DNA of 63,740 nucleotides from an uncultured virus (IMG/VR IMGVR_UViG_3300020183_000016) (IMGVR_UViG_3300020183_000016:62001-125740); one strand, 5' to 3'; positions 45,226 to 60,883 are shown, counted from the stretch's first letter. Program-made: numbers and translations. Notes: generated by a model not told the origin, from the letters alone.

Positions 45226-45323
45226 GGGTTAAATTAAATAATGCGATCATCTAACCATGAGGATTTACTTGCAGGAGTCCAAAGGACGAACATCGGATAA
45301 AGGAAGAACACCTGATTTAACCC
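45226..45323 (+). ncRNA. Unknown ~98-nt structured RNA right after tmRNA
   Basis: gggttaaatta/tgatttaaccc closing stem; inner gtcc-aaa-ggac hairpin. Confidence 0.4.
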
Positions 45324-45331
45324 TTTTTTTT

Positions 45332-45655
45332 TGCACCATTTCTACTTCTCAAGAGTAGACAGTTGTAACGACAAGAGACATTGCTCAACAATTCTCTTTC
45401 AAGAATGTGAATGATTCTGATACAGACATGAGAACCTGTATAGTAACAAAAAACTTTATTATGGGAAATACAGAATGGGTAAAAGGATTACTTGGTGATA
45501 CTAGAGTATTTAACAATGAATACCAATTTAGAAACTATGATGGTAGTATAGAATCTTTTAGTTCAATGGAAGAATTAGAAGATTACTTAAAAGAATACTT
45601 TTTGTATATATGTGAGTTATCACAAACTTCATAGTGTATACCTGAGTGCAGAGGG
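45332..45655 (+). ncRNA. Structured RNA motif copy A (homolog of 59066-59214) with an ORF in one loop
   Basis: Shares TGCAC, hairpin, CAGTTGTAACRACAAGA, CTCTTT, TGATACA and CTGAGTGCAGAGGG in the same order with copy B. Confidence 0.6.
45428..45634 (+). CDS. Small ORF nested in RNA motif copy A
   Basis: 68 aa from ATG 45428 (or 57 aa from 45461); phage-like codon usage. Confidence 0.5.
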   Translation: MRTCIVTKNFIMGNTEWVKGLLGDTRVFNNEYQFRNYDGSIESFSSMEELEDYLKEYFLYICELSQTS

Positions 45656-45727
45656 TTCACTAGGTTTCTTTATTCCTTAAAAAAAAATAAAGTGGTGGAA
45701 GTAGATAGTGATCCTATCGACCCTTTT

Positions 45728-45755
45728 AAAAGTCCCGAATATTCGGGACTTTTTA
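45728..45755 (+). terminator. Intrinsic terminator (perfect 26-nt palindrome)
   Basis: aaaagtcccgaat/attcgggactttt. Confidence 0.85.
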
Positions 45756-45834
45756 TTTTTTAACAAATATTTATAATAAAAAATTTGGCAGAATCGAAAC
45801 TTTTTTTTAAATTTACATTATAAATAAAAAGATT

Positions 45835-46032
45835 ATGAACTCAAAACTTCCATTTGTCGTAAATTATACAAAAGAGATGTCAGATAAGTTTAACGAAGAA
45901 CTTATGGAATCTAAGACTTGTCCTATGACAAACCCAAAGTTTTATGGTAAGTGGGATTTAGTTGATTTCGATTCACCAGAATATAATGAAAAGGTAAAGG
46001 TGAAAAGAAATTATGTTACAGAAAAGAATTAA
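45835..46032 (+). CDS. Hypothetical protein
   Basis: 65-aa ORF. Confidence 0.55.
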   Translation: MNSKLPFVVNYTKEMSDKFNEELMESKTCPMTNPKFYGKWDLVDFDSPEYNEKVKVKRNYVTEKN

Positions 46033-46633
46033 AAGAATATTAAACGAAATTAAATTTTCTCAGGAACAATCTGATGAACTTAGAGATAAATTTGGTTGGA
46101 GGTACGTTCAAACAGAAAAACCTAAGTCCGATAGTAAATATAAAAAATTAAGAGTTTATACTTTCCATACTCCTAAATATAAGTATATTGTACATATAGA
46201 GGAATATGAATACGATTATTTCCTTATTTCTTTTTTCCCTAAACTAAATACTGATTTTTATGTTAGACAACAAAAATTGGCAGATAGAGGACAAAATTTT
46301 TATGACAAATATAGTTATCAAACTAAAGAAAATATTCCTTTTAAAATATTCTCACTATTAGTAAGTGAAATAAAAAATATTTTAAAAGATCACCCTTATG
46401 CGTCTTTTGGTTACTTTGGGGCGCCTGATTACAAATTAGGTGAAGAAACAGATTTATTTAACACGAAAAGGGTTAGAATTTATAATCAATTATTGAATGA
46501 TGAATTTAATCAAACTCATGTTGTTAAATCTGAATTAGAGTTTAGTGGTGGTATGATTTTAAACAAAGAAGTATTAAATCAGTACCCAAATTTAGAAATG
46601 TATTGTAGGGATATGTTACAATCCCATTTATAA
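46013..46633 (+). CDS. Hypothetical protein
   Basis: 206 aa; IKRILNE N-terminus. Confidence 0.7.
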   Translation: MLQKRIKRILNEIKFSQEQSDELRDKFGWRYVQTEKPKSDSKYKKLRVYTFHTPKYKYIVHIEEYEYDYFLISFFPKLNTDFYVRQQKLADRGQNFYDKYSYQTKENIPFKIFSLLVSEIKNILKDHPYASFGYFGAPDYKLGEETDLFNTKRVRIYNQLLNDEFNQTHVVKSELEFSGGMILNKEVLNQYPNLEMYCRDMLQSHL

Positions 46634-46651
46634 TAAAAAAAATAAAGTTTT

Positions 46652-47146
46652 ATGGAAAAGGTATTAGTTTTAAATAATGACTATACCCCATTAAATGTAA
46701 CCACACTTAAAAGGGGTTTTAAGTTAGTCTATAAAGGTAAGGCAGAAATAGTTTATTCTGATGAGACAAACCCTATTGTATCCAGTTTTAAAAACTTCAC
46801 TAGACCATCTGTTATTAGGTTGAATAGATTTATCTATACCCCCTTTAAAAAAGTTCCTTTAAGTAGATATAATATTTTTAGGAGAGATGGACATAAATGT
46901 GTTTATTGTGGAACAAATAAAAATTTAACAATCGATCACGTAATACCTAAATCTAAAGGTGGTGACAATACTTGGAAGAATTTAGTTACTTGTTGTGGTG
47001 TATGTAATCTTAAAAAGGATGATAGAACACCAGAAGAGGTGGGAATGGGATTTTTAAGAAAACCATTTGCACCAACATACATCCAATTCATAGAAAGAAT
47101 GAATGGTATAATTAAAGAAGAATGGAAACAATTTTTAATGATTTAA
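46652..47146 (+). CDS. HNH endonuclease (McrA-like, free-standing)
   Basis: VLVLNNDYTPL..PSVIRL..RRDGHKCVYCG..TIDHVIPKSKGG..WKNLVTCC..CN..K. Confidence 0.9.
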   Translation: MEKVLVLNNDYTPLNVTTLKRGFKLVYKGKAEIVYSDETNPIVSSFKNFTRPSVIRLNRFIYTPFKKVPLSRYNIFRRDGHKCVYCGTNKNLTIDHVIPKSKGGDNTWKNLVTCCGVCNLKKDDRTPEEVGMGFLRKPFAPTYIQFIERMNGIIKEEWKQFLMI

Positions 47147-47824
47147 TATGAAAAAAAAATTTAGTTGGTATAAAGGAAATGGACTTTTTTGGTTCAGAAT
47201 ATTTGGGTACGGTTTATCTATCTCAAATAGATTAACATTTAGTCAAAAAGAGGGGTATGTGAATTACATTTACTTTTATGGATATGTAATTAGTTTTTTA
47301 AAACCTTATAAATATTAATATGTTAGATAAAATAAGATTATGGTGGAGGTTTGAGGGTAAACATTACCATAGAGATTTCATTGTGGGACTGACAAGATTT
47401 TTTAGAAAATATTTGTTTTATTAAAAAATAGTTATTATATTTGTTTTAAATTAAAAGACTATGCCACCAGAAGAATATTATGAAAGACTATTTGAAGATA
47501 GGTTAGATTCAAATAGAAGAGGTAAAAGTAATCATAAAAGATTAACTGCCGAAGAACAAGTTAGAGAAATAGAACTCAGAAGAAATATGAAGTATCTAGC
47601 GAATTTAATGGTTGATTATGTGAAAAATAATCCTAACTAAAATGGTAAGAGTACGTTTCCCAAACGAATCATATTACGATACAATTCCTAATTTTAATTG
47701 GGATGAGTTCAAACCAAGTAAAATTTATGATGAATGTGTATTTGGTTGGTTTCAAGATGTATACGTCTGCGTCGAAAGAGTTGATTATGACGAATATTAT
47801 AATAACAAAAAATAATACATTACT

Positions 47825-48049
47825 ATGAAAAAAATTTTACTCGAAACTCTAATTATGATTTTATCGGGAATAGTTTCAGGAATTGGATTTGCTGCATTGA
47901 CTATTGCCTTAGATATGGGCACAAAAAATTATTATGTGTTTATTCCTGCGTTAATAATAAGTTGGTTAATACTTTACCCTTCATATATATTTTGGTTGGA
48001 CTTCTTCAAAAAAGTTTTAAAATATGAAAGTTATGGTCAAAAAAATTAA
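47825..48049 (+). CDS. Small membrane protein
   Basis: Two TM segments; region 47150-48140 holds several further ORFs below 60 aa. Confidence 0.55.
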   Translation: MKKILLETLIMILSGIVSGIGFAALTIALDMGTKNYYVFIPALIISWLILYPSYIFWLDFFKKVLKYESYGQKN

Positions 48050-48151
48050 ACTACGTATCATATAATGGTGGAAAAAATGTATTGTAGATTATTGCCCACC
48101 TGAATTAGAAGACTATGTGGTTTCAAATAAATATAGATAAAAATTAAAATA

Positions 48152-48922
48152 ATGGCGAATTTTATATATTCCAGAGTTACAATTGAACCTTTAGAGTCAA
48201 TGAACAAAATTTGTAGTATGATTGAAAACATGCCTAAATCAGAGTATGGTAAAGAAACTACAACAGTTGTTAAAACATTTTATAGTGAAGAAGAATTGAA
48301 AAAACCGTATAACAATGGTGAGACAGAATACCCTATAACTGATGTAGGGGTTAAAATTGGTTGGTTATATGATAATGTTGGGACTAAGTGGATTGAATTA
48401 GGTATTGATGATGATATTAGAATTGAGTCTCCTTATTACATACCTGATGGATTTCTTATTAAATTATATAGTTTATGTATAGATGAATTTTCAGATGTTA
48501 AAATAATTTGTAAATGGTATGATGAATTTGAAACAAATTGTGGTACTGCATTAATATGGAATGGAATTTATACTGAAGATGAAGAAACTTTAAAAGATGA
48601 AAATATTGGTGATCCAGCCTATCAAGTTAATGGTGATGAAAATATTGATGAGATTAAAAAATGGGTATTAAGTGAAACTACTGAAGATTCTTATACTAAA
48701 CCAGAAGAAATAGAATCTATGAATGAAGAAGAATTAAGATGCCTTTTTGAAGATTGGAAAAATCAAGGTAAATGGAATTATATTACTGATAGGCAAGAAT
48801 CTATGTATTATTCATGTGAAGAAGCAATAGAAACTGAAGATTTTAATTTTCCGATATCGAGAGTTAGAAGAATTGCGAATGTAAAATATGAAATGATAAC
48901 AGATTGTTATCCGTTTAAATAA
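48152..48922 (+). CDS. Hypothetical acidic protein
   Basis: 256-aa ORF. Confidence 0.7.
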   Translation: MANFIYSRVTIEPLESMNKICSMIENMPKSEYGKETTTVVKTFYSEEELKKPYNNGETEYPITDVGVKIGWLYDNVGTKWIELGIDDDIRIESPYYIPDGFLIKLYSLCIDEFSDVKIICKWYDEFETNCGTALIWNGIYTEDEETLKDENIGDPAYQVNGDENIDEIKKWVLSETTEDSYTKPEEIESMNEEELRCLFEDWKNQGKWNYITDRQESMYYSCEEAIETEDFNFPISRVRRIANVKYEMITDCYPFK

Positions 48923-48945
48923 AACAATAAATAAAAATAAAAGTT

Positions 48946-49314
48946 ATGGGAATAAAAAATAATTTTATTGAAATGATTAAAGGTGGGTATCCTGATTTTG
49001 ATCCACAAAACGATTCAGTTGAAATCGAGTTCGAAGGTGGAGGAGATTCCTTTGATTCGTTTTCTTTTATTTCAGTCTACCCTAATAGGGAAGGTGAATT
49101 AAATCTAATTGATCATTGGGACACATTATTTGATATTATAGATAATTCTGGTGTTGCGTACAATTGGAACAATGGTGGTACTACTGGTAGGATTTAGTAT
49201 AATATGAATGGTGAACAAGAATTAACTGTTAGCACAATTATGATGGAAGAATATTGGGGTGAAGTTGATGACGATGAAGAGGAAGTTGGTGAAGTAAATT
49301 CTAAATCAGAATAA
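48946..49314 (+). pseudogene. DUF6878-like gene interrupted by in-frame TAG (49195-49197)
   Basis: VEIEFEGGGDS...NWNNGGTTGRI*YNMNGEQELTVST...; frame stays open for 38 more sense codons to TAA 49312-49314; near a DUF6915-like gene. Confidence 0.55.
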
Positions 49315-49474
49315 GATGGTAGGAAATATTTGGTTAGCAGTAAAGAAATTCTTTCACCAACATATACTTTGTATTCACAAGTATAAATGGGTCTATAGAA
49401 GAGATAATGGTGCAGACTATGAGGTTTGTGAGAAATGTGATTTGATTAGATAACCTTTAAATCAGAATAAAATA

Positions 49475-49879
49475 ATGGCGAATCCTTTAGTACATTCAAA
49501 GTCATCCGTTAAATTTTGGGGAGGAAAAGAAGAAGATTATTTACCACTTCATAATAAAATGGATTCTTCTAAAAAATATTTTAGTGATAACAGACATAGG
49601 GCGTTGACACATAATATGTTTTTTATATTTGAAGTAATGATACCAATTTTCGGTGAATATATTACAAATTCAGATGGTAAAATAGTATCCGTTAAAGATA
49701 TATGTGAATATCATATATTAGAAGATTACGGTAAAAAGTTTATACCTAATGTTTCTGACTTTCTACAAGAAATGGAAATCAAATCTTGGATGGCGAATGG
49801 TTTGGGTGAATCCCCATCATCACAAAAAAAAGTAATAACGAATGAAAGTAAAGTTCATAAAAGATTGGTAAAGGATTAG
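49475..49879 (+). CDS. DUF6915-like protein
   Basis: MANPLVHSKSSVKFWGG..DY..H..D.SK..DNRHRALTH...HILED. Confidence 0.7.
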   Translation: MANPLVHSKSSVKFWGGKEEDYLPLHNKMDSSKKYFSDNRHRALTHNMFFIFEVMIPIFGEYITNSDGKIVSVKDICEYHILEDYGKKFIPNVSDFLQEMEIKSWMANGLGESPSSQKKVITNESKVHKRLVKD

Positions 49880-49881
49880 TT

Positions 49882-50184
49882 ATGTTTGAAATTATCGGAA
49901 TAGTATTTACAGTTATTTTTATTTTTCTTTTGTTATTTATACAATATACTTTAATTTTGTTTGGTGTAATGAAAGAAAGTTTAAAGTGGTACGGTAGAGT
50001 TATTAGTTGGATACCTTTATTACCATATTTTATATATTTTATTTTAACAATAAGTTTTATAATTATGATTATGTTTGATAAATTTGTTAAGTGGTTTGAA
50101 CTAAATTTGGGTTGGTTCTTTATTAATGGAAGAAAACAATCTTATTGGTCAGAGTATCTAAAGAATAAATATAAAGATGAATAA
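49882..50184 (+). CDS. Membrane protein
   Basis: Two TM segments; WFELNLGWFFING. Confidence 0.6.
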   Translation: MFEIIGIVFTVIFIFLLLFIQYTLILFGVMKESLKWYGRVISWIPLLPYFIYFILTISFIIMIMFDKFVKWFELNLGWFFINGRKQSYWSEYLKNKYKDE

Positions 50185-50337
50185 TTAAAAAAATGTTAAA
50201 ATTTTAACTAAATGTGTATAATTATTTTGACATTTAAAATTTTTATCCTATATTTGTATTAAATAAAAAAGTTAGAGATACTTATAATCTCCGATGGGTG
50301 AAAAGCCTTAATAACAAATAAATTAAATTTTTTTAAA

Positions 50338-50526
50338 ATGAAAAGAATTTTTTTAATCTTAACCGTAATGGCAACGTTGGTGTCTTGCGGAGGTAACTCA
50401 ACAGATGCGACTGCACCAGCAACAGATGCAGGTACGGCTACTGAGGCAACTACAGAAGCAACTTCTAACGCAACTACTAGTGATAGTACTTCAGTAGAAG
50501 CAACTTCAAAAGTAAAAAAGAAGTAA
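50338..50526 (+). CDS. Small Thr/Ala/Ser-rich lipoprotein
   Basis: MKRIFLILTVMATLVS-CGG lipobox; own promoter (50249) and terminator. Confidence 0.75.
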   Translation: MKRIFLILTVMATLVSCGGNSTDATAPATDAGTATEATTEATSNATTSDSTSVEATSKVKKK

Positions 50527-50554
50527 TAAATCAGTTGGTTATTAAAAAAAAAAG

Positions 50555-50582
50555 AAACCCCTAAATTTTTAGGGGTTTTTTT
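50555..50582 (+). terminator. Intrinsic terminator
   Basis: aaacccctaaa/tttaggggttt plus T run. Confidence 0.8.
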
Positions 50583-50636
50583 ATATTTATATTATATTGG
50601 TTATTATATTTAATAAAAAACAATTATTGTACCAAA

Positions 50637-52610
50637 ATGAGAAAGACTATTAAAAAAATTTTAAGAGAATATAAAACAATTTTAGAAAATCAGGATATGG
50701 TATCTTCTATTTTAAATGTTATTTATTGTAAAGATATTAAATATTCTGATAATAGAAGTTATGGTACAAAGGGTTGGACACAAAAAAATTTAAAAAAAAG
50801 TAATGGAAATTTTCCACCTCTTATAAAAAGAGATGATCAAATAGATAAGATGTGCAATTGTTGTGCCGATGGAAAATATATTAGGGATATTAAATGTGAA
50901 GATGCATATATAGAACATTTAAGAAAGCATGATTTTACAACAAAGAACTTTTTATGGTATAAAAAAAATTGTGACACTAAAAAACAAAAAGAACAAAAGA
51001 CTAAAAAACAAAAAGAACAAAATCCGAATAGAAAAATAAGTATACTTAATGACACATCAATAACTATTGTAGAAGATGATTTAACTTATAAATTACCACC
51101 CCCTCCTTCACCGCCAGATCCTAATTTTATGCTATCATTAATGGGTAATATTGTGCAAGAATCTTTTGATTTTTTAAAACCACATGAATATGCTTGGATA
51201 ATGAGTGAATTTGTTAAATTTGATGAGGAAAAGCCTAAATGGTGGGATTTATTGGGTAAGGCAAAAAGATACGCTAGAAATAAAGTGCTTGACTGGACAA
51301 ATTTTTTATCTTGGGATATTATGTTAGAAGTAGATGATTTTTCTATAAAATATGGTGTCACTAAAGAAGGTACAAGTCAAGGAAATGTATATATAAGTAT
51401 GAAGATTGCCATAAATAATGGTGTTAAAAGAATTGCGACAATTAGAGTGGAGAGTGAATGTAAAGCAAAAATAGAATTAGTAGATAATATTTTTAATTGT
51501 GTAATAACAGATTATGCTTTATACGGAGATGTAGTTTCAATGTTTGATTTTAAATTAAGTATGGGTAGTAGTAATATTTTACACATTACTAAAGGCGATT
51601 ACATTGATATACCGATAGATTTAAATGAATACATTAAATTAGATTTTGAATACGAAATTCCTATACCTTCATATATGTCATTTAATGTAAGTATTCCTGA
51701 AAATGAAAAAATTTTGTACGGTTCTTTAACTAAAGGAAGTAAAAAAATTGAAGTTACAAACGAAAGCACTTTATTTTCTTCATTTATAGAAATTTCTAAT
51801 ACTCCACCAAAAATAAATGAAAGTAACAAAAGACATTTATCTTCCATAAAACAAAAATTTAGTGATAAAATATTTAAAATTATAAATGAACAGGACAATG
51901 TCATTGAAAAAACTAATAATGTTCAAATGATGATTAATTTTAATATAGTGCAAAAAATATTAAACCATATAGGATCAATAACTTTTAAACATAAAGTATC
52001 GGATTTTGTTGATAGTAGTTTAATAGATGAAAGATTAAACATTGTCTGGGATAAAATAAAAGATAATGATGTAATTTTAACTATTAGTAATTTATACACG
52101 TACAATATTTCAAGTAGTTTAATAGGGTTATCTGGTGTTGCAACAATAAAGTCACAACCACTATTTGTAATTAAAAAAACAAACGGTAACATTTTAGGTT
52201 ATGATATAGACATCAGTTTAGATTCAAATAATTTGGTACAAAAAAACATACCATTTAGCTCTACAATATATGTTAAAAATGAAGGTACAATAATAAAGAT
52301 GGGTATGGGTAGTTTAAAATTAAATATCCATAAATTTTTTAAATTAGGTATAAAAGAAAAAAGTGATCAATTAGACGCAGAATTCGATTTCATCCCAAAT
52401 GCGAAAGATAGTGAAATAACGTACCCTACTGGTGAGAAATCACCGTTTAAATTAGAGTTCCCTATACCCCCGATTAAAAAAGAAGAAATAGATATAACTT
52501 TTGGTGGCAATAAAAGAAGTGTAATCATACAACCATCGAACCAATATCAAATAACTCTTACTGAAAGTTTAGTAAGTAGTCTTACACAAGTTAAATTAGA
52601 AACTATTTAA
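50637..52610 (+). CDS. Large hypothetical protein
   Basis: 657 aa; IKKILRE..ILENQ leader, repeated internally as KINE..IINEQ; short TKKQKEQ duplication. Confidence 0.75.
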   Translation: MRKTIKKILREYKTILENQDMVSSILNVIYCKDIKYSDNRSYGTKGWTQKNLKKSNGNFPPLIKRDDQIDKMCNCCADGKYIRDIKCEDAYIEHLRKHDFTTKNFLWYKKNCDTKKQKEQKTKKQKEQNPNRKISILNDTSITIVEDDLTYKLPPPPSPPDPNFMLSLMGNIVQESFDFLKPHEYAWIMSEFVKFDEEKPKWWDLLGKAKRYARNKVLDWTNFLSWDIMLEVDDFSIKYGVTKEGTSQGNVYISMKIAINNGVKRIATIRVESECKAKIELVDNIFNCVITDYALYGDVVSMFDFKLSMGSSNILHITKGDYIDIPIDLNEYIKLDFEYEIPIPSYMSFNVSIPENEKILYGSLTKGSKKIEVTNESTLFSSFIEISNTPPKINESNKRHLSSIKQKFSDKIFKIINEQDNVIEKTNNVQMMINFNIVQKILNHIGSITFKHKVSDFVDSSLIDERLNIVWDKIKDNDVILTISNLYTYNISSSLIGLSGVATIKSQPLFVIKKTNGNILGYDIDISLDSNNLVQKNIPFSSTIYVKNEGTIIKMGMGSLKLNIHKFFKLGIKEKSDQLDAEFDFIPNAKDSEITYPTGEKSPFKLEFPIPPIKKEEIDITFGGNKRSVIIQPSNQYQITLTESLVSSLTQVKLETI

Positions 52611-53758: not shown

Positions 53759-54063
53759 AATCAATAAATCAAATATTCAAAACGAACAATTCACTTATGG
53801 AAGAACCAGAAGTAGTTGAATTAATTGATTATTGTAAAGATTTAGAAGATGAGGTTGTCGAGTATAAACAAAAAAATGATCAAACTATAATTTTAAAACA
53901 ACTTATTTCTGAAATTAATAAAAGTTGTTTTGAATTATTAGAAGATGATAAAAGGGCTGAAAGGTGGGAAGGTGATTTTGATAAGGTTGATTTTAAAGAA
54001 TCTATTATTAATTTAAGAGAGTATATAATAAAATATTGTTTAGATAATAAAATAAATTTATGA
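53755..54063 (+). CDS. Hypothetical protein, paralog of 25217..25531
   Basis: Shared PEV.ELIDY..LE motif. Confidence 0.7.
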   Translation: MKSINQIFKTNNSLMEEPEVVELIDYCKDLEDEVVEYKQKNDQTIILKQLISEINKSCFELLEDDKRAERWEGDFDKVDFKESIINLREYIIKYCLDNKINL

Positions 54064-54497
54064 ATAAGTATAGAATATATTTAGATGACATTAGGACACC
54101 TGTTAGTCCTAATAATGAATGGATTGATGGTTTTGAGGAATGGACAGTTGTACGTTCCTATGAAGAATTTGTCCAAAAAGTAAATTCATTAGGACTAAAG
54201 AATATTGAATTAATTTCATTGGATCACGATTTAGGTGATTCGGCAATGCAGGAATGGCATTATGGTGTAGTTAAAAACTATACGATTAATTACGATAACA
54301 TCACCGAAAAAACTGGATATGATTGTGCCAAATGGTTGGTTAATCAATGGATGGATGGTAAACCAGTTGTTAGGGTGGTAACTCATTCGGCAAACGCAAT
54401 TGGTAGTGCCAACATTATGGGTTACATAAATAATTACTTACACTTAAATAGATTACCACAAGATTGTGTAAGAGTACAAATAGAACATACAGTTTAA
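54060..54497 (+). CDS. Cyclic-phosphate-processing receiver-like domain protein
   Basis: IYLDDIRTP, ISLDHDLG, KTGYDCAKWL, THSAN. Confidence 0.8.
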   Translation: MNKYRIYLDDIRTPVSPNNEWIDGFEEWTVVRSYEEFVQKVNSLGLKNIELISLDHDLGDSAMQEWHYGVVKNYTINYDNITEKTGYDCAKWLVNQWMDGKPVVRVVTHSANAIGSANIMGYINNYLHLNRLPQDCVRVQIEHTV

Positions 54498-54498
54498 T

Positions 54499-55059
54499 AT
54501 GAAAGTAATATTTTTAGATCACGATGGAGTGATATGTTTATCCCAACAATGGGGTGGACGATATAAGAAAAAAGGTTATGATTCAAATACTGAAACTCCT
54601 TTAGATATCAGAATGGATAGTTTTGATGAAAAGGCGGTTAAAGTTCTTAATAATATTATTGAAGAAACTGGTTGTGAATTAGTTATTAGTTCTGATTGGA
54701 AAAGATGGGGTACATTGGAACAAATGAAGGAAATGTACGAAACAAGAGGTATTAAACAACCTATTGATTTAACCCCAATGATACAAAATTGTACTGCACA
54801 CAGTAACACATTTATATGGTCACCGAGATGGGATTCAGAACAAACTAGAGTTCTTGAAATTAATCAGTATCTACACGATCACCCCGAAATAACTCATTGG
54901 GTTGCCATTGATGATTTAGATTTAGGTAAGAATGGTGAAGGATGGAAAGATTGGGGGTTAGATAATTTTGTACTTTGTAAAAGACCGTATAATGAAGGAA
55001 TAAAACAATTAGGTTTAAAAGAAAAGATATTAAAATTTTTAAGTGATGAGTTACTATAG
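54499..55059 (+). CDS. HAD phosphatase of the Swiss-Army-knife RNA-repair type
   Basis: IFLDHDGV, VISSDW, EI..YL, WVAIDD. Confidence 0.8.
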   Translation: MKVIFLDHDGVICLSQQWGGRYKKKGYDSNTETPLDIRMDSFDEKAVKVLNNIIEETGCELVISSDWKRWGTLEQMKEMYETRGIKQPIDLTPMIQNCTAHSNTFIWSPRWDSEQTRVLEINQYLHDHPEITHWVAIDDLDLGKNGEGWKDWGLDNFVLCKRPYNEGIKQLGLKEKILKFLSDELL

Positions 55060-55309
55060 AATTAAAATTGAGGAATTAAAGGATGGTGAGACAAAATATA
55101 TACCACAAAAAGGTTATTTAATAACTCGTAGAAGTTTTTTACAAAGTAAATCTGAAATAAGGTGGGAAAATATGTTTTGTGGTTCATTTAGTAGTGAATC
55201 TCTCGCATTGGAAAGGATAGAGTTAGATAAAAAATTGGAAGAACAAAAAAAAGGTAAAGAAATATTAAAAACGACATATAAAATAATTGATGCGGGTTAT
55301 TTACTTTAA
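55043..55309 (+). CDS. Hypothetical protein
   Basis: 88-aa ORF. Confidence 0.55.
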   Translation: MMSYYRIKIEELKDGETKYIPQKGYLITRRSFLQSKSEIRWENMFCGSFSSESLALERIELDKKLEEQKKGKEILKTTYKIIDAGYLL

Positions 55310-55484
55310 AATTAAAAATTAGTATTTTTATTAAAAAATCAATTGAAATTGTTAAGGAAATTGAAAGGATTTTAGATAAAATGGGTGAAGAAATAATAGA
55401 AAATAATGACCCCGAAAAAATGTCTGAAGTTGTAAATAACTACCAACATTATAAAGAAATATTAAAAAAACAAAATAAAAATAT

Positions 55485-55745
55485 ATGAGTAAGGCAAATT
55501 TAGAATTTGATTTAACAGATTTCGATGATAGAATGGAATTCGAAAGATTTAATAAATCCACCGATATGGCAATGGTATTGTGGGAAATGGTTTATAATAC
55601 TAAAAAAAAATTATATTATAAATTTGAGGATATGGAAGAAAAAGGTGAAAAACCAACCCCATATGACGGTGTTGATTCATTTTTAGAATGTTTAATTGAA
55701 GAATTAAATGATAGGGGTATTATAATAGATAAATTAATTGTTTAA
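55485..55745 (+). CDS. Hypothetical protein
   Basis: 86-aa ORF. Confidence 0.6.
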   Translation: MSKANLEFDLTDFDDRMEFERFNKSTDMAMVLWEMVYNTKKKLYYKFEDMEEKGEKPTPYDGVDSFLECLIEELNDRGIIIDKLIV

Positions 55746-55842
55746 TATGAAAACATTAAAAAAAATAATAAAGTATATTAATTTTTTGGAAAAAGAAAAA
55801 ATTAATTCTATGATTTATTGTGGAAGAAATTTTAATTAAGAT

Positions 55843-56124
55843 ATGAGTGATTTTTTATTAGTCTGTAAAGAAATTTCTGAAAGGTTATCTAACCTACCAT
55901 ACGATAATGGAGATTCTTCCGATATAGGGAATGAGATAGGAATTGTTTTAGGACTTTTCTTGTCTGAAGGTTCTTTTGGTTGGGAGGAAGATGATTTTAT
56001 CTCTGGTATAAAACACGGTATAGATTTAAAAAAGAATCAAGAATTTTATTTATCTGAAATGATGAAGAAAGATCAAGAAAACGGATTATACGATAATTTA
56101 GATGGATTTGACAAAGATAAATAA
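55843..56124 (+). CDS. Hypothetical protein
   Basis: 93-aa ORF. Confidence 0.6.
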   Translation: MSDFLLVCKEISERLSNLPYDNGDSSDIGNEIGIVLGLFLSEGSFGWEEDDFISGIKHGIDLKKNQEFYLSEMMKKDQENGLYDNLDGFDKDK

Positions 56125-56149
56125 AATTATTAACTTTAAATAAAAAAAT

Positions 56150-56530
56150 ATGATGACTAATGAACAAATGAATGAATTTTTAGTTTCCATTGGGGGATTA
56201 GAAAACGGTTTTTATTCGGATAGACAACCCATTACTGATTGTAACTTTTTTGATGTAAATAATGGTTGGTTTGAATTGATAAAAGAATTAATTGAAGATT
56301 TAATATCTTTAGGTTGGGATAAACAAACCTGTCAAGTTAAAGAAAAATTTGGTGGACTTAGATTTTATATTAATGGTGGAACTGATGAAATCTTTAATAG
56401 AATAATTGAGGCAGAAAGAAAGAGTTATGAGATATGTGAAGAAACGGGAAAACCTGGTAAATTAAGAACAGATCTTGGTTGGCACAGAACTCTTTGTGAT
56501 GAAGAATATGAAAAATTTAAAAATAGATAA
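56150..56530 (+). CDS. Conserved phage protein (QVKEKFGGLRFY family)
   Basis: GWFELI..QVKEKFGGLRFY..AE..S..ICE..G.PG..GW..TLC. Confidence 0.7.
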   Translation: MMTNEQMNEFLVSIGGLENGFYSDRQPITDCNFFDVNNGWFELIKELIEDLISLGWDKQTCQVKEKFGGLRFYINGGTDEIFNRIIEAERKSYEICEETGKPGKLRTDLGWHRTLCDEEYEKFKNR

Positions 56531-56531
56531 A

Positions 56532-56804
56532 ATGAAATATAGAAAAAAACCAGTAGAAATTGAAGCGGTACAATGGGTATCTGATAACATTGAACAAGTT
56601 TATGAAATGTTAGGTGATAACTTAATAATAGGCGGCGATGAAAATGATTTAAAACATTTCATTAATACGTTAGAAGGTGAAATGGAATTGTCTTGGGGTG
56701 ATTATGTCATCAAAGGAGTTAAAGGCGAATTTTATCCTTGCAAACCAGATATTTTTGAATTAACATACGAAATAGTAGAAAAAACAAATGAAATTGGAAT
56801 ATAG
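56532..56804 (+). CDS. Conserved small phage protein (KKPVxIEA...YPCKPDIF family)
   Basis: YRKKPVEIEAVQW..TLEG..GDYVIKGVKGEFYPCKPDIF; start moved to ATG 56532. Confidence 0.75.
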   Translation: MKYRKKPVEIEAVQWVSDNIEQVYEMLGDNLIIGGDENDLKHFINTLEGEMELSWGDYVIKGVKGEFYPCKPDIFELTYEIVEKTNEIGI

Positions 56805-57078
56805 ATTTATAAACAGATACAGTAACGAAATACTTTTCATTAGGGAAGGTGATTCTTTCGAAATGAAGGGTGGTGATTACTACAGATATCTATTCAATGT
56901 GGACGATGAAGGTAATTTTTTAAATTACGATGCGATTGATCCATCTGGTGGTCCTTATATTAGTGTTGGGATGGATATGGAATATATACACGAAGACTTA
57001 AAAGGTTTAGTTATTGAATCCATAGAAAGAAATAAGGAAGGTAATGAAAAAATAATATTAAAAACGAAATTATTATGA
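56788..57078 (+). CDS. Hypothetical protein
   Basis: IDPSGGPYI motif; operon-packed. Confidence 0.65.
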   Translation: MKLEYRFINRYSNEILFIREGDSFEMKGGDYYRYLFNVDDEGNFLNYDAIDPSGGPYISVGMDMEYIHEDLKGLVIESIERNKEGNEKIILKTKLL

Positions 57079-57461
57079 CATACGAAGAATTTTTAAGTAT
57101 ATTAATGTCTTACAAAAAGTTAAATGAAGACTTTACAGAATTATACCAAATGGGATTTGATTTTTTAGAAGGTAAATATAAGTTAGAAGAAGGTGTATCT
57201 AGGATGTTAGATAGTATTTTATCTTCACATTACACAGAAGAAGGTGTTGATTGGATTAATTGGTTTATGTTTGATAGTGATTGGGGTACTAGAGATTGGA
57301 GTAGATTGCCTGTATATGATACATCAGGTAAATTAATTCACGACGCGGATTCAATGAAGGCGTATGGTGCGAAAGATGAGAATGATAACCCTATATGTTT
57401 TTCATTTGAATCCACATATGAGTATACGAAACAATATTTAAAAAATAAAAAAGATGAATAG
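57075..57461 (+). CDS. Hypothetical protein
   Basis: 128-aa ORF. Confidence 0.65.
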   Translation: MTYEEFLSILMSYKKLNEDFTELYQMGFDFLEGKYKLEEGVSRMLDSILSSHYTEEGVDWINWFMFDSDWGTRDWSRLPVYDTSGKLIHDADSMKAYGAKDENDNPICFSFESTYEYTKQYLKNKKDE

Positions 57462-58056
57462 ATTAGAATTAACAGACGAACAACTTTGGTTGGTTCAACA
57501 GGCATTAGATTTTTATTCTAGGGTAGGTATCGGTCAATTTACTGTAATTAAAGATCACCCAACATTTGAAAGATATTTGGAAGAAGTGTGTAGACCTGTT
57601 AAAGATCCTGAAGTTGGTGATAGAACGTCACAAGGTGAAATATTAGAAATTAAAGATGGTAAGGCATTAATTAATGGTTCTGTAAGTAAAGAAACTGGAC
57701 ATTGGTGTGAAGAAAAAGAATGGAAACCAATTAAAGAAGTTAAATTAAGTACAGATTATTCTAAGTATCATAGATTGAGGGATAATGTAGATATGATGTT
57801 GATACAACCTCGTAATGTTTTAATAAACGATACAACTATGAATAGTAATGGTTCTTGGGGTATTCATCATCCATCTGTTGATGATAGTTGTAGGATGGCG
57901 TTTGATATGGTACAAGTTATAAGACACGAAAGGTGGAAGAAAAATCCTAATAGAAATACTATGACAGTTGATTCTCATACACATTTTACACACAGAAAGG
58001 ATAATTCATCTAATAAAATTAAATGTGAATTAAATGTAGAAGATGAAAATAAATAA
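57454..58056 (+). CDS. Hypothetical protein
   Basis: 200-aa ORF. Confidence 0.7.
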   Translation: MNRLELTDEQLWLVQQALDFYSRVGIGQFTVIKDHPTFERYLEEVCRPVKDPEVGDRTSQGEILEIKDGKALINGSVSKETGHWCEEKEWKPIKEVKLSTDYSKYHRLRDNVDMMLIQPRNVLINDTTMNSNGSWGIHHPSVDDSCRMAFDMVQVIRHERWKKNPNRNTMTVDSHTHFTHRKDNSSNKIKCELNVEDENK

Positions 58057-58240
58057 TATTATATTTTTTTGTAGCGAATGGAGTACTTGGAATGGATTCG
58101 TCCTACATTTATTTCACTACGATGGATTTATTTTTGACAGATATTTTGATAATTCATTATTTAGTATTAATTTTAGTAAAAATTTCTTATATATAGATTT
58201 ATTTTTTATGACTTTTAAAATTTATAGTAATTTGAAATGA
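58043..58240 (+). CDS. Hypothetical protein
   Basis: 65-aa ORF. Confidence 0.5.
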   Translation: MKINNIIFFCSEWSTWNGFVLHLFHYDGFIFDRYFDNSLFSINFSKNFLYIDLFFMTFKIYSNLK

Positions 58241-58381
58241 AAAAATATGATCAACATAAAATGAAGAGAACACAGATACGTCAACAACAAGTTGAAGATG
58301 GTTTTTTTGATGGTCGTTTTGTTTCTAGATCGGAAACACCTAAAAATTTATATAGTAGAAAATTAAAACATAGAAAAAATA

Positions 58382-58708
58382 ATGGAGACAATCCAAACAT
58401 CATTTAATGATTTATATGTAGGTAAAGAATTTATCTATAAGAGTAAATACGGTAGAACCAAAGGTATAGTTAAATCAGTAAAAGTTAATACATCATTTAT
58501 TTTCGATGAAGATACACAAAATTCTTTGTCGTATATTGCGGATCATTCCGTTAAAGGTACAAAAACTTTGGAAAAACCTGTATTAAGTGGTGAAAAAAGA
58601 TACATCGCACTTCAACCACAAATCCTTATTGAGTCTACAAATGGGGTAATCTACGAATTAAAAGATTGTTATTTTTTGACTGAAGATGAAAATAAATTCG
58701 GTTTTTAA
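58382..58708 (+). CDS. Hypothetical protein
   Basis: 108-aa ORF. Confidence 0.65.
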   Translation: METIQTSFNDLYVGKEFIYKSKYGRTKGIVKSVKVNTSFIFDEDTQNSLSYIADHSVKGTKTLEKPVLSGEKRYIALQPQILIESTNGVIYELKDCYFLTEDENKFGF

Positions 58709-58791
58709 AAAATATTTGACAATTCGGTTTTTTATTTTTAACTTTGTAAAAGAAAATTAGTTCATTGACATATTGGTTATAAAGAATAAAA

Positions 58792-58870
58792 TGTTGTTCC
58801 CTTGAGAAAGGAATAGACCTTAACGAGAGTTAGGATGAAATAAAACAACACAGAGGACTTCTCATCCTCA
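58792..58870 (+). ncRNA. Kissing-loop RNA motif copy X1
   Basis: tgttgtt/aacaaca stem; loop TGAGAA complementary to loop TTCTCA of the gagga/tcctc hairpin; both ends repeated at 59223-59243 and 59641-59661. Confidence 0.55.
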
Positions 58871-58901
58871 AGTCAGGATAGATTTGTTTCTATCCTGACT
58901 A
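58871..58901 (+). ncRNA. tRNA minihelix-like element
   Basis: AGTCAGG-ATAGA-tttgtt-TCTAT-CCTGACT-A (7+5 bp); same acceptor stem as two tRNA-like RNAs. Confidence 0.55.
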
Positions 58902-58962
58902 CAATGAAGACTGTTACTAATTCATAGGACAAGACAAGTAGTAAGCGTAGAATTAGAATTTT

Positions 58963-59055
58963 AGTCAGGTGGCGGAATTGGTAGACGCTAGTTAACAGAC
59001 AGATAGATAAAAGGAATGGTTTACTATCATACAGGTTCGAATCCTGTCCTGACTA
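58963..59055 (+). tRNA. tRNA-like RNA without canonical anticodon arm
   Basis: AGTCAGG/CCTGACT acceptor; Leu-type D arm GCGGAATTGGTAGACGC; T arm ACAGG-TTCGAAT-CCTGT; no 5-bp/7-nt anticodon arm. Confidence 0.7.
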
Positions 59056-59065
59056 CTAATCCTAA

Positions 59066-59214
59066 TGCACTTAACTGACATAAGTCAGGCAGTTGTAACA
59101 ACAAGATAGACCAAAAACAGCAAACTCTTTGACTTAGAAAGGCGAGTTTAGGTAGACGTTTTGTAGTGATACAATTAAGATTAACTCTTAAGTGTTACAA
59201 CTGAGTGCAGAGGG
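59066..59214 (+). ncRNA. Structured RNA motif copy B (ORF-less)
   Basis: tgcact/agtgca and cagttgtaac/gttacaactg pairings; homologous to 45332-45655. Confidence 0.6.
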
Positions 59215-59289
59215 GTAACATGTGTTGTTGCATTGAGAAAGGAGAGTGTGGTCATAACAGTTATTTTAAGTGCAAATATATATAAAGAT

Positions 59290-59637
59290 ATGAAAAATAT
59301 AAAAACAAAAAAGGAATTAGAAACAGAAGCACTTTTGTTATATGGTGGTAATAATAAACAAAATCCACCATTTAATGTGGGTGATAAACTAAAACAAATA
59401 TGGAGAGTTGGTGATAATGACAACCTTATAAAAGACGGTAGGGGAATGGTGGAATTTGTTGGTATGAGAGGTAATATGATGTTATTGAAGACATTAAACG
59501 ATTATGCGGCACATTCGGAGGATACTATTAACCAAGATGTTGTTAAAATGTCTAAAAAAGCAGGATATAAACCTATAATTGGTGATGTTCTTCAATTACA
59601 TTATATGTATGCTGATAGATATGAGGTGGTCGGGTAA
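59290..59637 (+). CDS. Hypothetical protein nested between the halves of RNA motif X2
   Basis: 115 aa from ATG 59290; the TTG start at 59233 lies inside the RNA motif. Confidence 0.65.
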   Translation: MKNIKTKKELETEALLLYGGNNKQNPPFNVGDKLKQIWRVGDNDNLIKDGRGMVEFVGMRGNMMLLKTLNDYAAHSEDTINQDVVKMSKKAGYKPIIGDVLQLHYMYADRYEVVG

Positions 59638-59664
59638 AAAACAGAGGACTTCTCATCCTCATAA

Positions 59665-59747
59665 GCCTCGGTGGTGGAATTGGTAGTCACGCTCGGCTTA
59701 AGATCGAGTGTCCATTGGACGTGCGGGTTCAAGTCCCGCCTGAGGTA
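59665..59747 (+). tRNA. tRNA-Leu(UAA)
   Basis: GCCTCGG/CTGAGGT acceptor; CTCGG-CTTAAGA-TCGAG anticodon arm; long variable arm; GCGGG-TTCAAGT-CCCGC; no encoded CCA. Confidence 0.92.
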
Positions 59748-59748
59748 C

Positions 59749-59913
59749 AAAAGATGTTACAAACCGTAGAATGACAGACGTGGAGAGACGTGTCGAAAGG
59801 GTATACACTAAGGATAGGCGTTCAATCTTAATTGTATTGATATAAGACCCAACTCTCTAATGGTGTGTGAAGTCGAAAGACGGGATTCCTGATAAAGTCA
59901 TTTATCATCTTTT
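59749..59913 (+). ncRNA. Unknown ~165-nt structured RNA between tRNAs
   Basis: aaaagatg/catctttt and aatgac/gtcatt closing stems; gtc-gaaa-gac GNRA hairpin; GC-richer than coding DNA. Confidence 0.45.
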
Positions 59914-59917
59914 AATT

Positions 59918-59950
59918 GCGCCCGTAGATCAGTTGAATAGATCAACGGAC
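59918..59950 (+). pseudogene. 5' half of a tRNA (Arg-like), truncated at the anticodon loop
   Basis: GCGCCCG-TA-GATC-AGTTGAATA-GATC-A-ACGGA-C; no matching 3' half. Confidence 0.6.
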
Positions 59951-59952
59951 AT

Positions 59953-60024
59953 GGCTCCATAGTTAAATGGATATAACGAATCTCTTCTAAAGATTAGTTC
60001 CTAGTTCGATTCTAGGTGGGGCTA
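59953..60024 (+). tRNA. tRNA-Arg(UCU)
   Basis: GGCTCCA/TGGGGCT acceptor; AATCT-CTTCTAA-AGATT; CCTAG-TTCGATT-CTAGG; no encoded CCA. Confidence 0.9.
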
Positions 60025-60031
60025 CTAAAGT

Positions 60032-60109
60032 GGGTAAGAGCGTAATGAGGCACGGTGCCGAGTCCCGTAAAAAGGTTGTTCATTGTGGGTTCGAATCCCA
60101 CCTTACCCA
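60032..60109 (+). tRNA. tRNA-like RNA with unrecognisable anticodon arm
   Basis: GGGTAAG/CTTACCC acceptor; GTGGG-TTCGAAT-CCCAC T arm; middle region does not form a normal anticodon stem-loop. Confidence 0.65.
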
Positions 60110-60111
60110 TT

Positions 60112-60879
60112 TGACACATAAACTTAGGTACCCGTACAGCTATGAGATGGGCTAAGTTATATATTTTTTGAATTTCCATATACTTATAATAAAGTATTGG
60201 TTATGGACTATAAAAAAATATATGAATCGATTATCCATAGAGGTAAAAACAGAAAACTAAATACCTATAAGGAAAAACATCATATTATTCCGAAATGTAT
60301 GGGAGGTAGTGATGATGACACAAATTTAGTAGAATTAACTGCTAAAGAACATTTTATTTGTCATTTACTTTTGTGTGAAATATACCCTAATGAAAATACA
60401 CTTAAAAGTGCTAGATGGGCTATGACTTGTTTAAAAAGTAAAAATCATAATAGGAAGTATATTGTATCTTCTTCTCAATATGATAGAATAAAAAATGAAA
60501 TGGCATTGTTAAAAAAAGGTGTAAAACGTAGTGATGAGGTTAAAGAAAAAATATCGAACTTTCGTAAAGGTATAACACATTCAGAAGAAACTAAAAAAAA
60601 GATTTCAGATAAAATGAAAAATAGGGTTCAATCTGAAGAACACAAGTTAAATCAATCTTTATCCAAAAAAGGACAAATCCCTTGGAATAAGGGTATTCAT
60701 ATTTCTGAAGAAACTAAAATAAAAATATCTTTATCGAGAAAAAAAGGAATAAGTACGTAGATATGTCTGTGCCAATTATCTTTAAATAACTTAGGAAACG
60801 TACAGAAACCTAATGTAGCGTACCGCTTTTCCATATATGATTTCTCGGTGCTGGGAGTAGAATGCCTAAGAGTGTGTCA
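60112..60879 (+). ncRNA. Structured RNA enclosing an HNH homing-endonuclease ORF
   Basis: Nested pairings tgacacat/gtgtgtca, cttaggta/tgcctaag, cagc/gctg, and ctaagttat (60152-60160)/ataacttag (60786-60794) closing the ORF loop. Confidence 0.6.
60203..60760 (+). CDS. HNH homing endonuclease with NUMOD3 repeats
   Basis: EKHHIIPKCMGGSDD.TNLVELTAKEHFICHLLL; HSEETKKKIS, PWNKG..SEETK.KIS. Confidence 0.9.
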   Translation: MDYKKIYESIIHRGKNRKLNTYKEKHHIIPKCMGGSDDDTNLVELTAKEHFICHLLLCEIYPNENTLKSARWAMTCLKSKNHNRKYIVSSSQYDRIKNEMALLKKGVKRSDEVKEKISNFRKGITHSEETKKKISDKMKNRVQSEEHKLNQSLSKKGQIPWNKGIHISEETKIKISLSRKKGIST

Positions 60880-60883
60880 TTAT

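Follow-up and report, generated by a model that had tools for sequence, protein, structure and literature searches.

Three families of small structured RNA in the tRNA/tmRNA array of an uncultured virus, each with one gene-interrupted copy

Among the tRNA and tmRNA genes of the window, which is the whole 63,740-nucleotide stretch analysed here (IMG/VR IMGVR_UViG_3300020183_000016, positions 62001-125740), lie members of three small structured RNA families, A/B, X and Z, each with one gene-interrupted copy in this genome. The first-pass annotation had taken them for RNA shells that carry ORFs in one loop. A and B, X1 and X2, and the element at 60112-60879 are real homologous pairs or split RNAs and lie where it had placed them; its description of structured RNAs in a tRNA/tmRNA setting is borne out by folding z-scores (B, -4.1; X1, -5.6; none of 200 shuffles reached the same stability in either case) and by many homologs, and the ORFs do sit where homologs carry a short or variable segment. 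Compact copies of each family are numerous in viral contigs. The first family is represented by A and B:

45321..45657, plus strand: element A, a putative degenerate twister-type RNA with a long ORF-bearing P5 arm (matched by model R1; ends homologous to those of B)
45332-45335, plus strand: P2 5' strand of A, UGCA
45342-45358, plus strand: P4 hairpin of A, loop UUCUCAAGA
45360-45369, plus strand: P5 5' strand of A, CAGUUGUAAC
45407/45428..45634, plus strand: ORF in A (68 aa from the ATG at 45428, 75 aa from the GTG at 45407, 57 aa from the ATG at 45461)
45635-45655, plus strand: 3' half of A, UGUAUACCUG-AG-UGCA-GAGGG
59055..59223, plus strand: element B, a putative compact twister-type RNA (full-model R1 match; folding z-score)
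59063-59065, plus strand: UAA of B (UAAU at 59063-59066)
59066-59069 with 59206-59209, plus strand: P2 of B, UGCA
59075-59079 with 59084-59088, plus strand: P4 of B, with loop AUAA in place of UUCCCAAGG
59090-59203, plus strand: P5 arm of B
59210-59214, plus strand: GAGGG of B

The 5' and 3' ends are common to A and B, and 20-mer and 16-mer probes derived from A find, with as many as 4 mismatches allowed, only A and B in the 125.7-kb genome. As had been claimed, B has a hairpin TTAAGA-TTAAC-TCTTAA (59175-59191) 3' of TGATACA and A has an ORF whose stop TAG (45632-45634) abuts its 3' strand; both are read in the sequence. That ORF is an orphan, with no Pfam or PHROG family at E <= 0.001, no relatives found in viral contigs and only its own 57-aa form in a collection of 5.8 billion proteins.

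The A/B-type family, present at more than 122 viral loci, may well fold like the self-cleaving twister ribozyme (type P1), with the 'cargo loop' as a long optional P5 arm, an assignment that is partly supported and that rests on manual structure mapping, since the Rfam twister models give no match at E <= 10 on the window A/B regions or on loci L039, L029, L094, L258 and L058. The first-pass annotation could place the elements in no known RNA class; twister, a known class, would explain the A/B layout, although Rfam itself does not assign A/B to it. In comparison with published twisters (PMC5408937, PMC6154101, PMC11662667), the elements stand in the same order: P1, U-A-A and P2, then an internal loop and the P4 hairpin (loop UCCCAAG), the optional arm, and finally the 3' strand of P2, GAGGG and the 3' strand of P1. 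P1 is variable, and the CCC of the loop can pair with GGG and its GG with CC. Stems P1, P2 and P4 stand in canonical order with covariation support in family alignment A5 (36 sequences), where 93% of cells pair, against 32-47% with slid partners, and where compensatory changes occur at 9 pairs, the observed values being reached by 0 of 500 shuffles. UAAU, which would supply the scissile U-A step and the conserved A of twister, stands before P2 in 63 of the 68 majority-type members; P2 changes from GCAC/GUGC to GUAC/GUAC in 3 members, and its 5' strand is absent in about a third of the family. Twister has a conserved L4 loop that makes two pseudoknots, with L1 and with L2; for the family L4 loop UUCCCAAGG the CCC:GGG and GG:CC pairings are found in 99-100% of cells and the positions are invariant, though CCCAAG was part of the search pattern and that sample is thus no measure of its conservation. 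This loop and the 3' GAGGG correspond to TCCCAAGC and GAGGG of a twister printed in bioRxiv 10.1101/2020.06.20.162982.

There are differences too. The L2 letters are not those of twister, and P5 is reported for 1% of annotated twisters, whereas the A/B arm is always present and long, spanning 47-183 nt in 104 of the 109 copies listed (about 285 nt in A); of the other five, L415 and L390 are full-length compact matches and L411 a weak partial match only, none of these three being loaded, and two are cut by the locus end. Both window copies, moreover, are without core parts. Model R1 gives 90-110 bits for 11 held-out majority-type members, against 51.3 bits (E 1.3e-10, full model aligned) for B and 26.2 bits for A (45321-45454), where the 5' half is matched to another, decayed 3' half (about 45415-45445) overlapping the start of the ORF. 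A has UUUU where the UAA before P2 is expected, and so lacks the scissile U-A feature, and its L4 loop UUCUCAAGA is a partial match to the family loop; it keeps P2, P4 and the 3' GAGGG, and its insertion lies in the arm best tolerated by twisters. B, with AUAA as its L4 loop, lacks the twister L4-loop feature, and has an identical twin in a different phage (L258/L020). According to the same twister sources, cleavage is abolished by mutations just 3' of the cleavage site and by pseudoknot defects, while P5 arms are well tolerated.

Between A and Z lie the X elements:

58790..58870, plus strand: X1, an intact compact X RNA directly 3' of a promoter-like AT-rich stretch
58790-58796 with 58844-58850, plus strand: P1 of X1
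58797-58812, plus strand: first hairpin of X1, loop UUGAGAAA
58852-58868, plus strand: 3' hairpin of X1, GAGGA-CUUCUCA-UCCUC, its loop complementary to the first loop
58871..58901, plus strand: minihelix AGUCAGGAUAGA-loop-UCUAUCCUGACUA, read directly and folding as a 12-bp hairpin
59223..59661, plus strand: X2, X ends (5' end 59223-59245, 3' end 59639-59661) around a 115-aa gene
59290..59637, plus strand: gene in X2, encoding a phage protein that is conserved (115 aa, or 134 aa from a TTG)

X is a very conserved pseudoknotted RNA of 70-170 nt located a few bases upstream of tRNA, tRNA-like or Z genes, and no counterpart was found in Rfam or in the papers searched. Its exact 3' 20-mer occurs at 109 viral loci and its 5' 22-mer at more than 123; a tRNA, tRNA-like or Z gene follows directly in 76 of 105 copies. 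Pairing involves 98.8% of cells, against 34-58% with slid partners, and in the 50 3' hairpins found in 57 sequences that had been picked out solely by the 5' motif, each of the four Watson-Crick combinations occurs at the fifth pair, GAGG/CCUC becomes AAGG/CCUU and UCUC is kept in the loop. X1 groups with other X copies in family alignments A1 and A2. The minihelix that follows it has the same acceptor-stem letters as nearby tRNA-like frames (AGTCAGG/CCTGACT).

Two ribozyme classes invite comparison. Like the theta (minimal HDV-like) ribozymes of Caudoviricetes (PMC10879173), X is small, conserved and a few bases from tRNA genes, and a role in the maturation of tRNA precursors is plausible for X; theta lies downstream of tRNAs and acts in 3' trailer processing, whereas X is upstream. 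X as an HDV-like ribozyme was rejected: by eye its helix order does not fit the nested double pseudoknot (P1, P1.1, P2, P3, P4), Rfam gives no HDV-like match, and only 22 of 105 copies are 3' of a tRNA or frame end, whereas an HDV-like RNA would have its 5' cleavage site beside a tRNA 3' end. With pistol, as given in Table S1 of PMC10761166, X shares a hairpin loop that pairs, as a 6-bp pseudoknot, with a strand downstream of an ...ACAG linker. In X, though, that strand belongs to the loop of another hairpin, neither a P3 nor a G-U cleavage step occurs at the matching place, and a closing helix and a variable hairpin are added. Rfam gives no pistol match on X, and the likeness is a resemblance only.

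That X1 is compact and X2 has the same ends around a 115-aa ORF had been proposed, and both ends were located. By eye and relative to the consensus, the P1 3' strand of X2 is AAAAAAC where the family has ACAACAC, with 2 of 7 pairs lost, and its first hairpin is UUGC/GGAG as against UUCC/GGAA, with 1 of 4 pairs mismatched; pairing between its two ends is weakened. The gene product has no Pfam family and no Atlas match at >=0.9. Its gene has relatives at 7 viral loci (38-100% identity), and in L260, L261 and L263 these stand amid ordinary genes without X flanks. A different phage, L258, has 560 nt in common with the window at 99-100% identity (the ORF, the X 3' half, the minihelix and B), no X 5' half and no X 5' motif upstream of the ORF, and the remainder of L258 has no match in this genome. 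The notion that the two X halves are a required pair is not supported, given this layout, and X2 is, to judge by its sequence, a mosaic.

The third element is Z with its insertion:

60112..60163, plus strand: Z 5' half, with closing-stem strands ACACA and ACUUAGG followed by UACCC and invariant GGGCUAAGUUAUAUA (92% identity to L058 2489-2654)
60164..60832, plus strand: insertion in the Z loop with the HNH-NUMOD3 gene, absent from L058, L042 and L097
60197/60203-60760, plus strand: HNH-NUMOD3 homing-endonuclease gene (Pfam, PHROG)
60785-60832, plus strand: decayed repeat of the Z 5' half, in the 3' part of the insertion
60833..60879, plus strand: Z 3' half, with CUCGGUGCU, invariant GGGAGUAGAA and closing-stem strands CCUAAG and UGUGU (90% identity to L058 2650-2710)

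Z is an RNA of about 100 nt whose closing stem is long and covaries and whose loops are invariant; 20 unique compact copies of it were counted in the viral loci collected. Compensatory changes occur at 11 of 26 predicted pairs (family alignment A4). The region 60112-60879 is closed by a 13-nt interrupted stem. As had been reported, an HNH-NUMOD3 ORF is bracketed by a 9-bp stem, CTAAGTTAT/ATAACTTAG; the stem is there, and the ORF matches NUMOD3 (8.7e-12), HNH (0.0024) and the homing-endonuclease family phrog_655 (6e-47), and its DNA also matches genes of T4-like phages whose records label them homing endonucleases. The direct repeats AACTTAGG and TTTCCATATA are present here. In L058, L042 and L097 the sequence corresponding to window 60163 joins that of 60833, an empty allele, so that gene presence is polymorphic at one site in related genomes. 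The gene splits the invariant Z loop, and among 80 homolog loci Z halves flank it in this phage's lineage only (0 of 79 others). The halves are as conserved relative to L058 as the neighbouring tRNA-like gene and hence show no visible decay of their own. In its HNH and NUMOD3 domains, one-locus polymorphism and highly conserved target the gene resembles the free-standing and intron-borne HNH homing genes of T4-like phages; it differs in its place, the loop of a gene for a small non-coding RNA where no intron is detected.

Both empty and loaded states had been noticed for two families; both states are indeed seen, but in all three, Z being uninterrupted in L058. Elsewhere the census of viral contigs gave, among the copies listed, loaded forms in 0 of 114 X, 0 of 107 A/B-type and 0 of 20 Z, the P1 3' strand lying no more than 200 nt away in all 114 resolvable X copies of the 119 listed. 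Pairing or conserved loops are damaged in the loaded copies, with pairs lost in X2, A reduced to 26 bits and the Z loop split, while the Z halves themselves stay at 90-92%; decayed pairing of this kind is one of the outcomes that the first-pass annotation had named as refuting its reading. The best explanation as a whole, held with moderate confidence, is that three separate RNA families inhabit phage tRNA/tmRNA arrays and that the ORFs are secondary, lineage-specific events with conserved RNA as the recombination or homing target.

Might a gene instead have become trapped between two RNA paralogs in tandem, the inner halves of which decayed, leaving outer halves that merely resemble one split RNA? 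These RNAs do occur in tandem (up to 4 R1 matches per 3-kb locus; 3 X copies within 450 nt in L234), and A has an additional, decayed 3' half where its ORF starts, as Z has an additional, decayed 5' half 3' of the HNH gene. As a general account this is unlikely; for Z a relative carries just one copy, uninterrupted and with the same genes on either side, which favours insertion with partial duplication. For A and X2 the two scenarios fit the data equally well. We regard as quite unlikely that the RNAs are functional carriers whose halves fold around an ORF and either make it more stable or free it from the transcript of the tRNA array through ribozyme cleavage or tRNA-type processing, loaded and empty copies being two working states. 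In its favour, each of the three ORFs is placed precisely between matching RNA halves, twisters tolerate long P5 arms, the HNH gene is bracketed by its stem, and the X2 ORF and X 3' half move as a unit between two phages. Against this, loaded copies listed are confined to this lineage, A lacks UAA, B the L4 loop and X2 some P1 pairs, the invariant Z loop is split, the X2 gene relatives are ordinary free-standing genes, and L258 has the same ORF without the X 5' half; the three cargoes are also unrelated to one another. In view of the confinement to one lineage, the damaged pairing or loops and the L258 layout, a dedicated shell-cargo system, as the first-pass annotation had envisaged, is not supported; a tolerant or targeted insertion site is partly supported.

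HNH genes often ride phage introns, and the tmRNA of the window has a true group I intron (44970-45196, 100.3 bits, the sole RF00028 match), but that the ORFs are in self-spliced or excised intervening sequences (group I-like introns or IVS) with mature RNAs left intact is scarcely credible, as at E <= 10 no group I core (P3-P8, RF00028) is found in A, X2 or 60112-60879 and no Rfam intron match of any kind in 45321-45657, 59223-59661 or 60112-60879, and the non-coding parts of the HNH insertion, 33 and 72 nt, are too short for such a core. The suggested parallel with ORFs in group I intron loops is close for A, whose P5 arm is likewise peripheral, structurally optional and tolerant of a gene, and for the HNH gene as such; it breaks down in that A, X2 and Z have no intron core and are not spliced from a host gene, and in that the segment interrupted in Z and X2 is not peripheral but conserved or needed for pairing.

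On the favoured reading of secondary events at conserved RNAs, A/B, X and Z family RNAs would populate the tRNA/tmRNA arrays of many uncultivated phages and, being conserved and repeated, would be targets for recombination or homing. A homing-endonuclease gene of the HNH type would have entered the invariant loop of Z, as the uninterrupted allele of a relative indicates; a conserved 115-aa phage gene with a travelling X 3' half would have been joined behind another X 5' half, as the differing layout in the second phage indicates; and an orphan ORF of 57-68 codons would have come to lie in the twister P5 arm of A, between a decayed 3' half and a better-kept one. The ORFs may gain expression from their location in a strongly transcribed RNA operon, and the interrupted RNAs would be impaired relics that neither process nor stabilise their cargo. 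Thus the gene-bearing copies look like damaged recombination by-products rather than purpose-built carriers. It is odd all the same that three different RNA families should each have an ORF in one 125-kb genome, which counts against independent accidents.

X and Z are the interesting, unexplained part. Tentatively, either or both could be new classes of self-cleaving or otherwise catalytic RNA beside twister-type ribozymes in phage tRNA arrays, X perhaps being a self-removing leader, or one that guides the 5' maturation of the tRNA or tRNA-like gene downstream of it, and the RNA modules might also be recombination 'sockets', as the 560-nt block common to L258 suggests, through which gene cassettes would move between unrelated phages.

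Three RNAs of this phage array, each with an ORF in one loop, had been read in the first-pass annotation as RNA 'shells', either cassettes for processing or stabilization or else tolerant insertion sites. The window makes up the second half of a virus record, one contig of 125,740 bases. Rfam was run on all of it at gathering thresholds, and with E <= 10 for 44000-46200 and 58600-61200. The assigned tRNA and tmRNA features of the array, with the group I intron, are:

44608-44996, tmRNA with its T loop interrupted by a group I intron (Rfam gathering threshold, 61.6 bits)
44970-45196, the group I intron, inside the T loop of the tmRNA (Rfam, 100.3 bits)
58963-59056, 'tRNA-Leu(CAG)' of ARAGORN, which Rfam aligns only by allowing 30 inserted nt around the anticodon
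59665-59747, tRNA-Leu(UAA) (Rfam gathering threshold)
59953-60024, tRNA-Arg(UCU) (Rfam gathering threshold)
60884-60971, weak tRNA-like match (Rfam gathering threshold)

The exons of the phage tmRNA region (44600-45222) rejoin as GGGGAUGG...CCAUCUCCA, the G3:U pair included, with CCA not encoded. The stretch of about 100 nt that follows (45223-45331) is closed by GGGTTAAAT...ATTTAACCC, then nine T, and is perhaps a long terminator-like hairpin, or else another small RNA. tRNA-like genes lie at 58963-59056, 60027-60109 and 60884-60971; two of those in the window have a common acceptor stem (AGUCAGG/CCUGACU), a common T arm and aberrant anticodon regions. The 5' half of a tRNA-Arg(UCU) stands truncated at 59920-59952, directly followed by a different, complete tRNA-Arg(UCU). 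Its counterpart is complete in L058 (1828-1902), a contig locus from a relative, and no matching 3' half was found anywhere in the genome. The roughly 170-nt non-coding stretch 3' of tRNA-Leu(UAA) (59749-59919) is 83% identical to L058 1610-1790, has two GUCGAAAG motifs and no Rfam match, and may be a further structured RNA.

None of the RNAs considered below (A, B, X and Z) had an Rfam match, at gathering thresholds in the window or at E <= 10 in the two regions. A (45321-45657), which holds an orphan ORF of 57-68 aa, and the compact B (59055-59223) do have common ends, as had been noticed, and are the sole two such copies in the genome; the fold of B has a z-score of -4.1 against shuffled controls. 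A first search pattern, CAGTTGTAACRACAAGA, was discarded, 23 of its 25 loci being chance matches in coding DNA. An improved one, derived from copies that adjoin X in other loci, gave a family of at least 122 viral loci, with 109 unique copies among the matches listed. The majority type (68 of 103 among the matches listed) runs from a variable P1 through UAAU, GCAC, CC-AUU, CUCAC, UUCCCAAGG and GUGAG to a long arm, with CAGUUGUAAU/AUUACAACUG closing it, and then AG, UGCA, GAGGG and P1'. A type-P1 twister that has a P5 arm shows the same element order, and the loop and 3' GAGGG match one twister sequence printed in bioRxiv 10.1101/2020.06.20.162982. Against a twister assignment, the Rfam twister models match neither the window regions nor the relatives' loci, and about one-third of the family is without the P2 5' strand. 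In an alignment of 36 sequences, 93% of cells pair in the structure with both pseudoknots, versus 32-47% with slid partners, and there are nine compensatory pairs, a result equalled in 0 of 500 shuffles. The A/B family is a predicted twister-type fold. What had been taken for a cargo loop equals the P5 arm of that predicted fold, which spans 47-183 nt in 104 copies among the matches listed and about 285 nt in A.

How sound are the two copies in the window? A covariance model was built from the family and tested on 11 held-out majority-type members, which scored 90-110 bits (n=11), against 51.3 bits for B and 26.2 bits for A. B has AUAA in place of the pseudoknot-forming loop of the family. A has UUUU at the position where UAAU stands in 63 of 68 majority-type members, and the partner that the model assigns to its 5' half is a second, decayed 3' half, which overlaps the ORF start codon. 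A 2024 high-throughput twister study (PMC11662667) reports that cleavage is abolished when bases immediately 3' of the cleavage site are mutated or when a pseudoknot is defective, and that P5 stem-loops are well tolerated. On these sequence grounds, both A and B are degenerate. The ORF of A had no relatives in viral contigs and retrieved only its own sequence from the protein collection, and the tmRNA-A region had no orthologous match in the records of five relatives, all of them fragments. At 59167-59203 in B and at 45415-45445 in A, a UGAUACA segment like the P5 3' strand (UGUUACA) stands before the insert, a hairpin in B and the ORF in A; these segments look like partial target duplication by an insertion event.

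The second pair consists of the compact X1 (58790-58870) and X2 (59223-59661), in which the X ends surround a 115-aa gene (59290-59637). Their common ends were confirmed, with no third such copy in the genome, and the fold of X1 has a z-score of -5.6 against shuffled controls. The exact 3' 20-mer of X occurs in 109 viral loci and its 5' 22-mer in at least 123, with about 45 nt nearly invariant over more than 200 unique copies. X has the consensus GUGUUGU-UCCC-UUGAGAAA-GGAA, a variable hairpin, and ACAACAC-A-GAGGN-(U)UCUCA-NCCUC. Pairing holds in 98.8% of cells with compensatory change in one pair only, covariation being scarce because both ends are so conserved. Among the matches listed when copies were selected by their 5' end alone, the fifth pair of the 3' hairpin takes all four Watson-Crick forms and AAGG/CCUU replaces GAGG/CCUC. 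UCUC(A), a complement of the first loop, is retained in the hairpin loop. Within 16 nt 3' of 105 unique copies there is an ARAGORN tRNA in 25, a tRNA-like 'frame' gene with the AGUCAGG acceptor stem in 44 and Z in seven, so that 76 of 105 have such a gene directly downstream; 22 of 105 follow the end of a tRNA or frame. No loaded X, that is, one with an ORF, was present among 114 resolved copies. In 44 further copies ('type 2') X runs on into a larger RNA. In these type 2 loci (L146, L176, L196, L211, L221, L164, L204 and about 40 more) the X 5' module leads into ...ACAACACAAAUGAGUUCUCAGCAAGUAGUUAA-variable-UUAACUACGUGACCCUAC; this larger RNA, which is uncatalogued, lies 5' of tmRNA in three of 15 loci scanned (L164, L204 and L221). 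A hairpin at 61003-61021 has a conserved 11-nt loop, CGAGACGGGUA, on a GAGG/CCUC stem; in L076, L079, L083 and L113, where it sits just 5' of X, the stem is GGGA/UCCC, a compensatory change.

The gene in X2 encodes a conserved phage protein of 115 aa, found in seven related loci and without a Protein Atlas match at 0.9 or more; in three phages at greater distance its neighbours are ordinary genes and X is absent. L258, a locus from another phage, has in common with the window a cassette of 560 nt at 99-100% identity (L258 1200-1762, window 59044-59660) containing the ORF, the X 3' half, a minihelix and B. The flanks of L258 outside it have no match in this genome, and 5' of its ORF there is a twister-type RNA instead of the X 5' end. 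This points to an RNA-plus-gene module recently exchanged between phages. L058, 81-92% identical across the array, has one intact X directly 5' of the equivalent tRNA-Leu(UAA), and window 58871-59634 is therefore extra. The ends of X2 have lost two of seven P1 pairs and one of four hairpin pairs. X2 is, on this comparison, a mosaic.

Z, the third RNA, was rightly described as complementary ends (60112-60879) with an HNH-NUMOD3 homing-endonuclease ORF inside. In L058, L042 and L097, with the same neighbouring genes, an uninterrupted RNA of about 105 nt takes the place of the two window segments, 60112-60163 and 60833-60879. Compact relatives number 20 unique sequences, 18 of which were aligned: a 16-bp closing stem has compensatory changes in 11 pairs, and GGGCUAAGU..AUACAAUUCC and GGGAGUAGAA are invariant. 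The insertion is 669 nt long, lies within the invariant loop and has short direct repeats at its boundaries. Besides the HNH gene it contains a decayed repeat of the Z 5' half. An intron is very improbable: its non-coding stretches, of 33 and 72 nt, leave no room for a core, and Rfam gave no intron match. Among 80 loci with HNH homologs, Z halves on both sides occur in this phage's own lineage only.

Rfam on the relatives' loci gave tRNA and tmRNA at gathering scores and otherwise weak sub-threshold matches to unrelated families. In annotated phage records, matches were confined to the HNH gene and the core of the group I intron, with none for the RNA motifs. Literature searches with sequence strings from X, Z and A/B gave five unrelated matches and no other, leaving X without a match in Rfam or the literature searched; on ribozymes in phage tRNA arrays they gave theta-ribozyme work alone, supplementary sequence lists (theta, twister) being outside their scope. 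For Z and X, hatchet and pistol were set aside, by-eye comparison with the printed sequences (PMC10761166 Table S1) giving short similarities only. Across bacterial and archaeal genomes, an X pattern hit a single MAG contig, of 2.9 kb. The sole sequencing run with signal, labelled 'RNA?', had 0.09 of sampled words. Its contigs span conserved modules only, with joints such as 58869>58962 and 59057>59670 whose sides are about 21 nt, and other phages are a possible source.

Are these shells, then, built to carry genes? A dedicated system would sit poorly with three unrelated cargoes in three unrelated RNA families, with the confinement of every loaded case to this lineage, with a damaged core or duplicated half in each and with direct comparative evidence of secondary origin in two of the three. 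These features agree better with recombination and homing at repeated, conserved sequences. Nothing beyond known processes would then be needed to explain shell-with-cargo, namely a ribozyme arm that is optional, a homing endonuclease and recombination of mosaic type. From the high conservation of X and Z, their pseudoknots and their position beside twister-type ribozymes, we infer that they are candidates for new RNAs with a catalytic or processing role.

Searches beside twisters and hammerheads have earlier yielded new classes of self-cleaving ribozymes, which makes X and Z, two families without assignment, concrete candidates for bench tests. Phage tRNA arrays are exposed as holding a dense, largely uncatalogued set of small RNAs, including a twister-type branch missed by Rfam models, with more than 100 copies and often several per locus. 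How such arrays evolve is illustrated by a homing-endonuclease gene within an intron-less non-coding RNA gene, and by near-identical RNA-plus-gene cassettes in otherwise unrelated phages.
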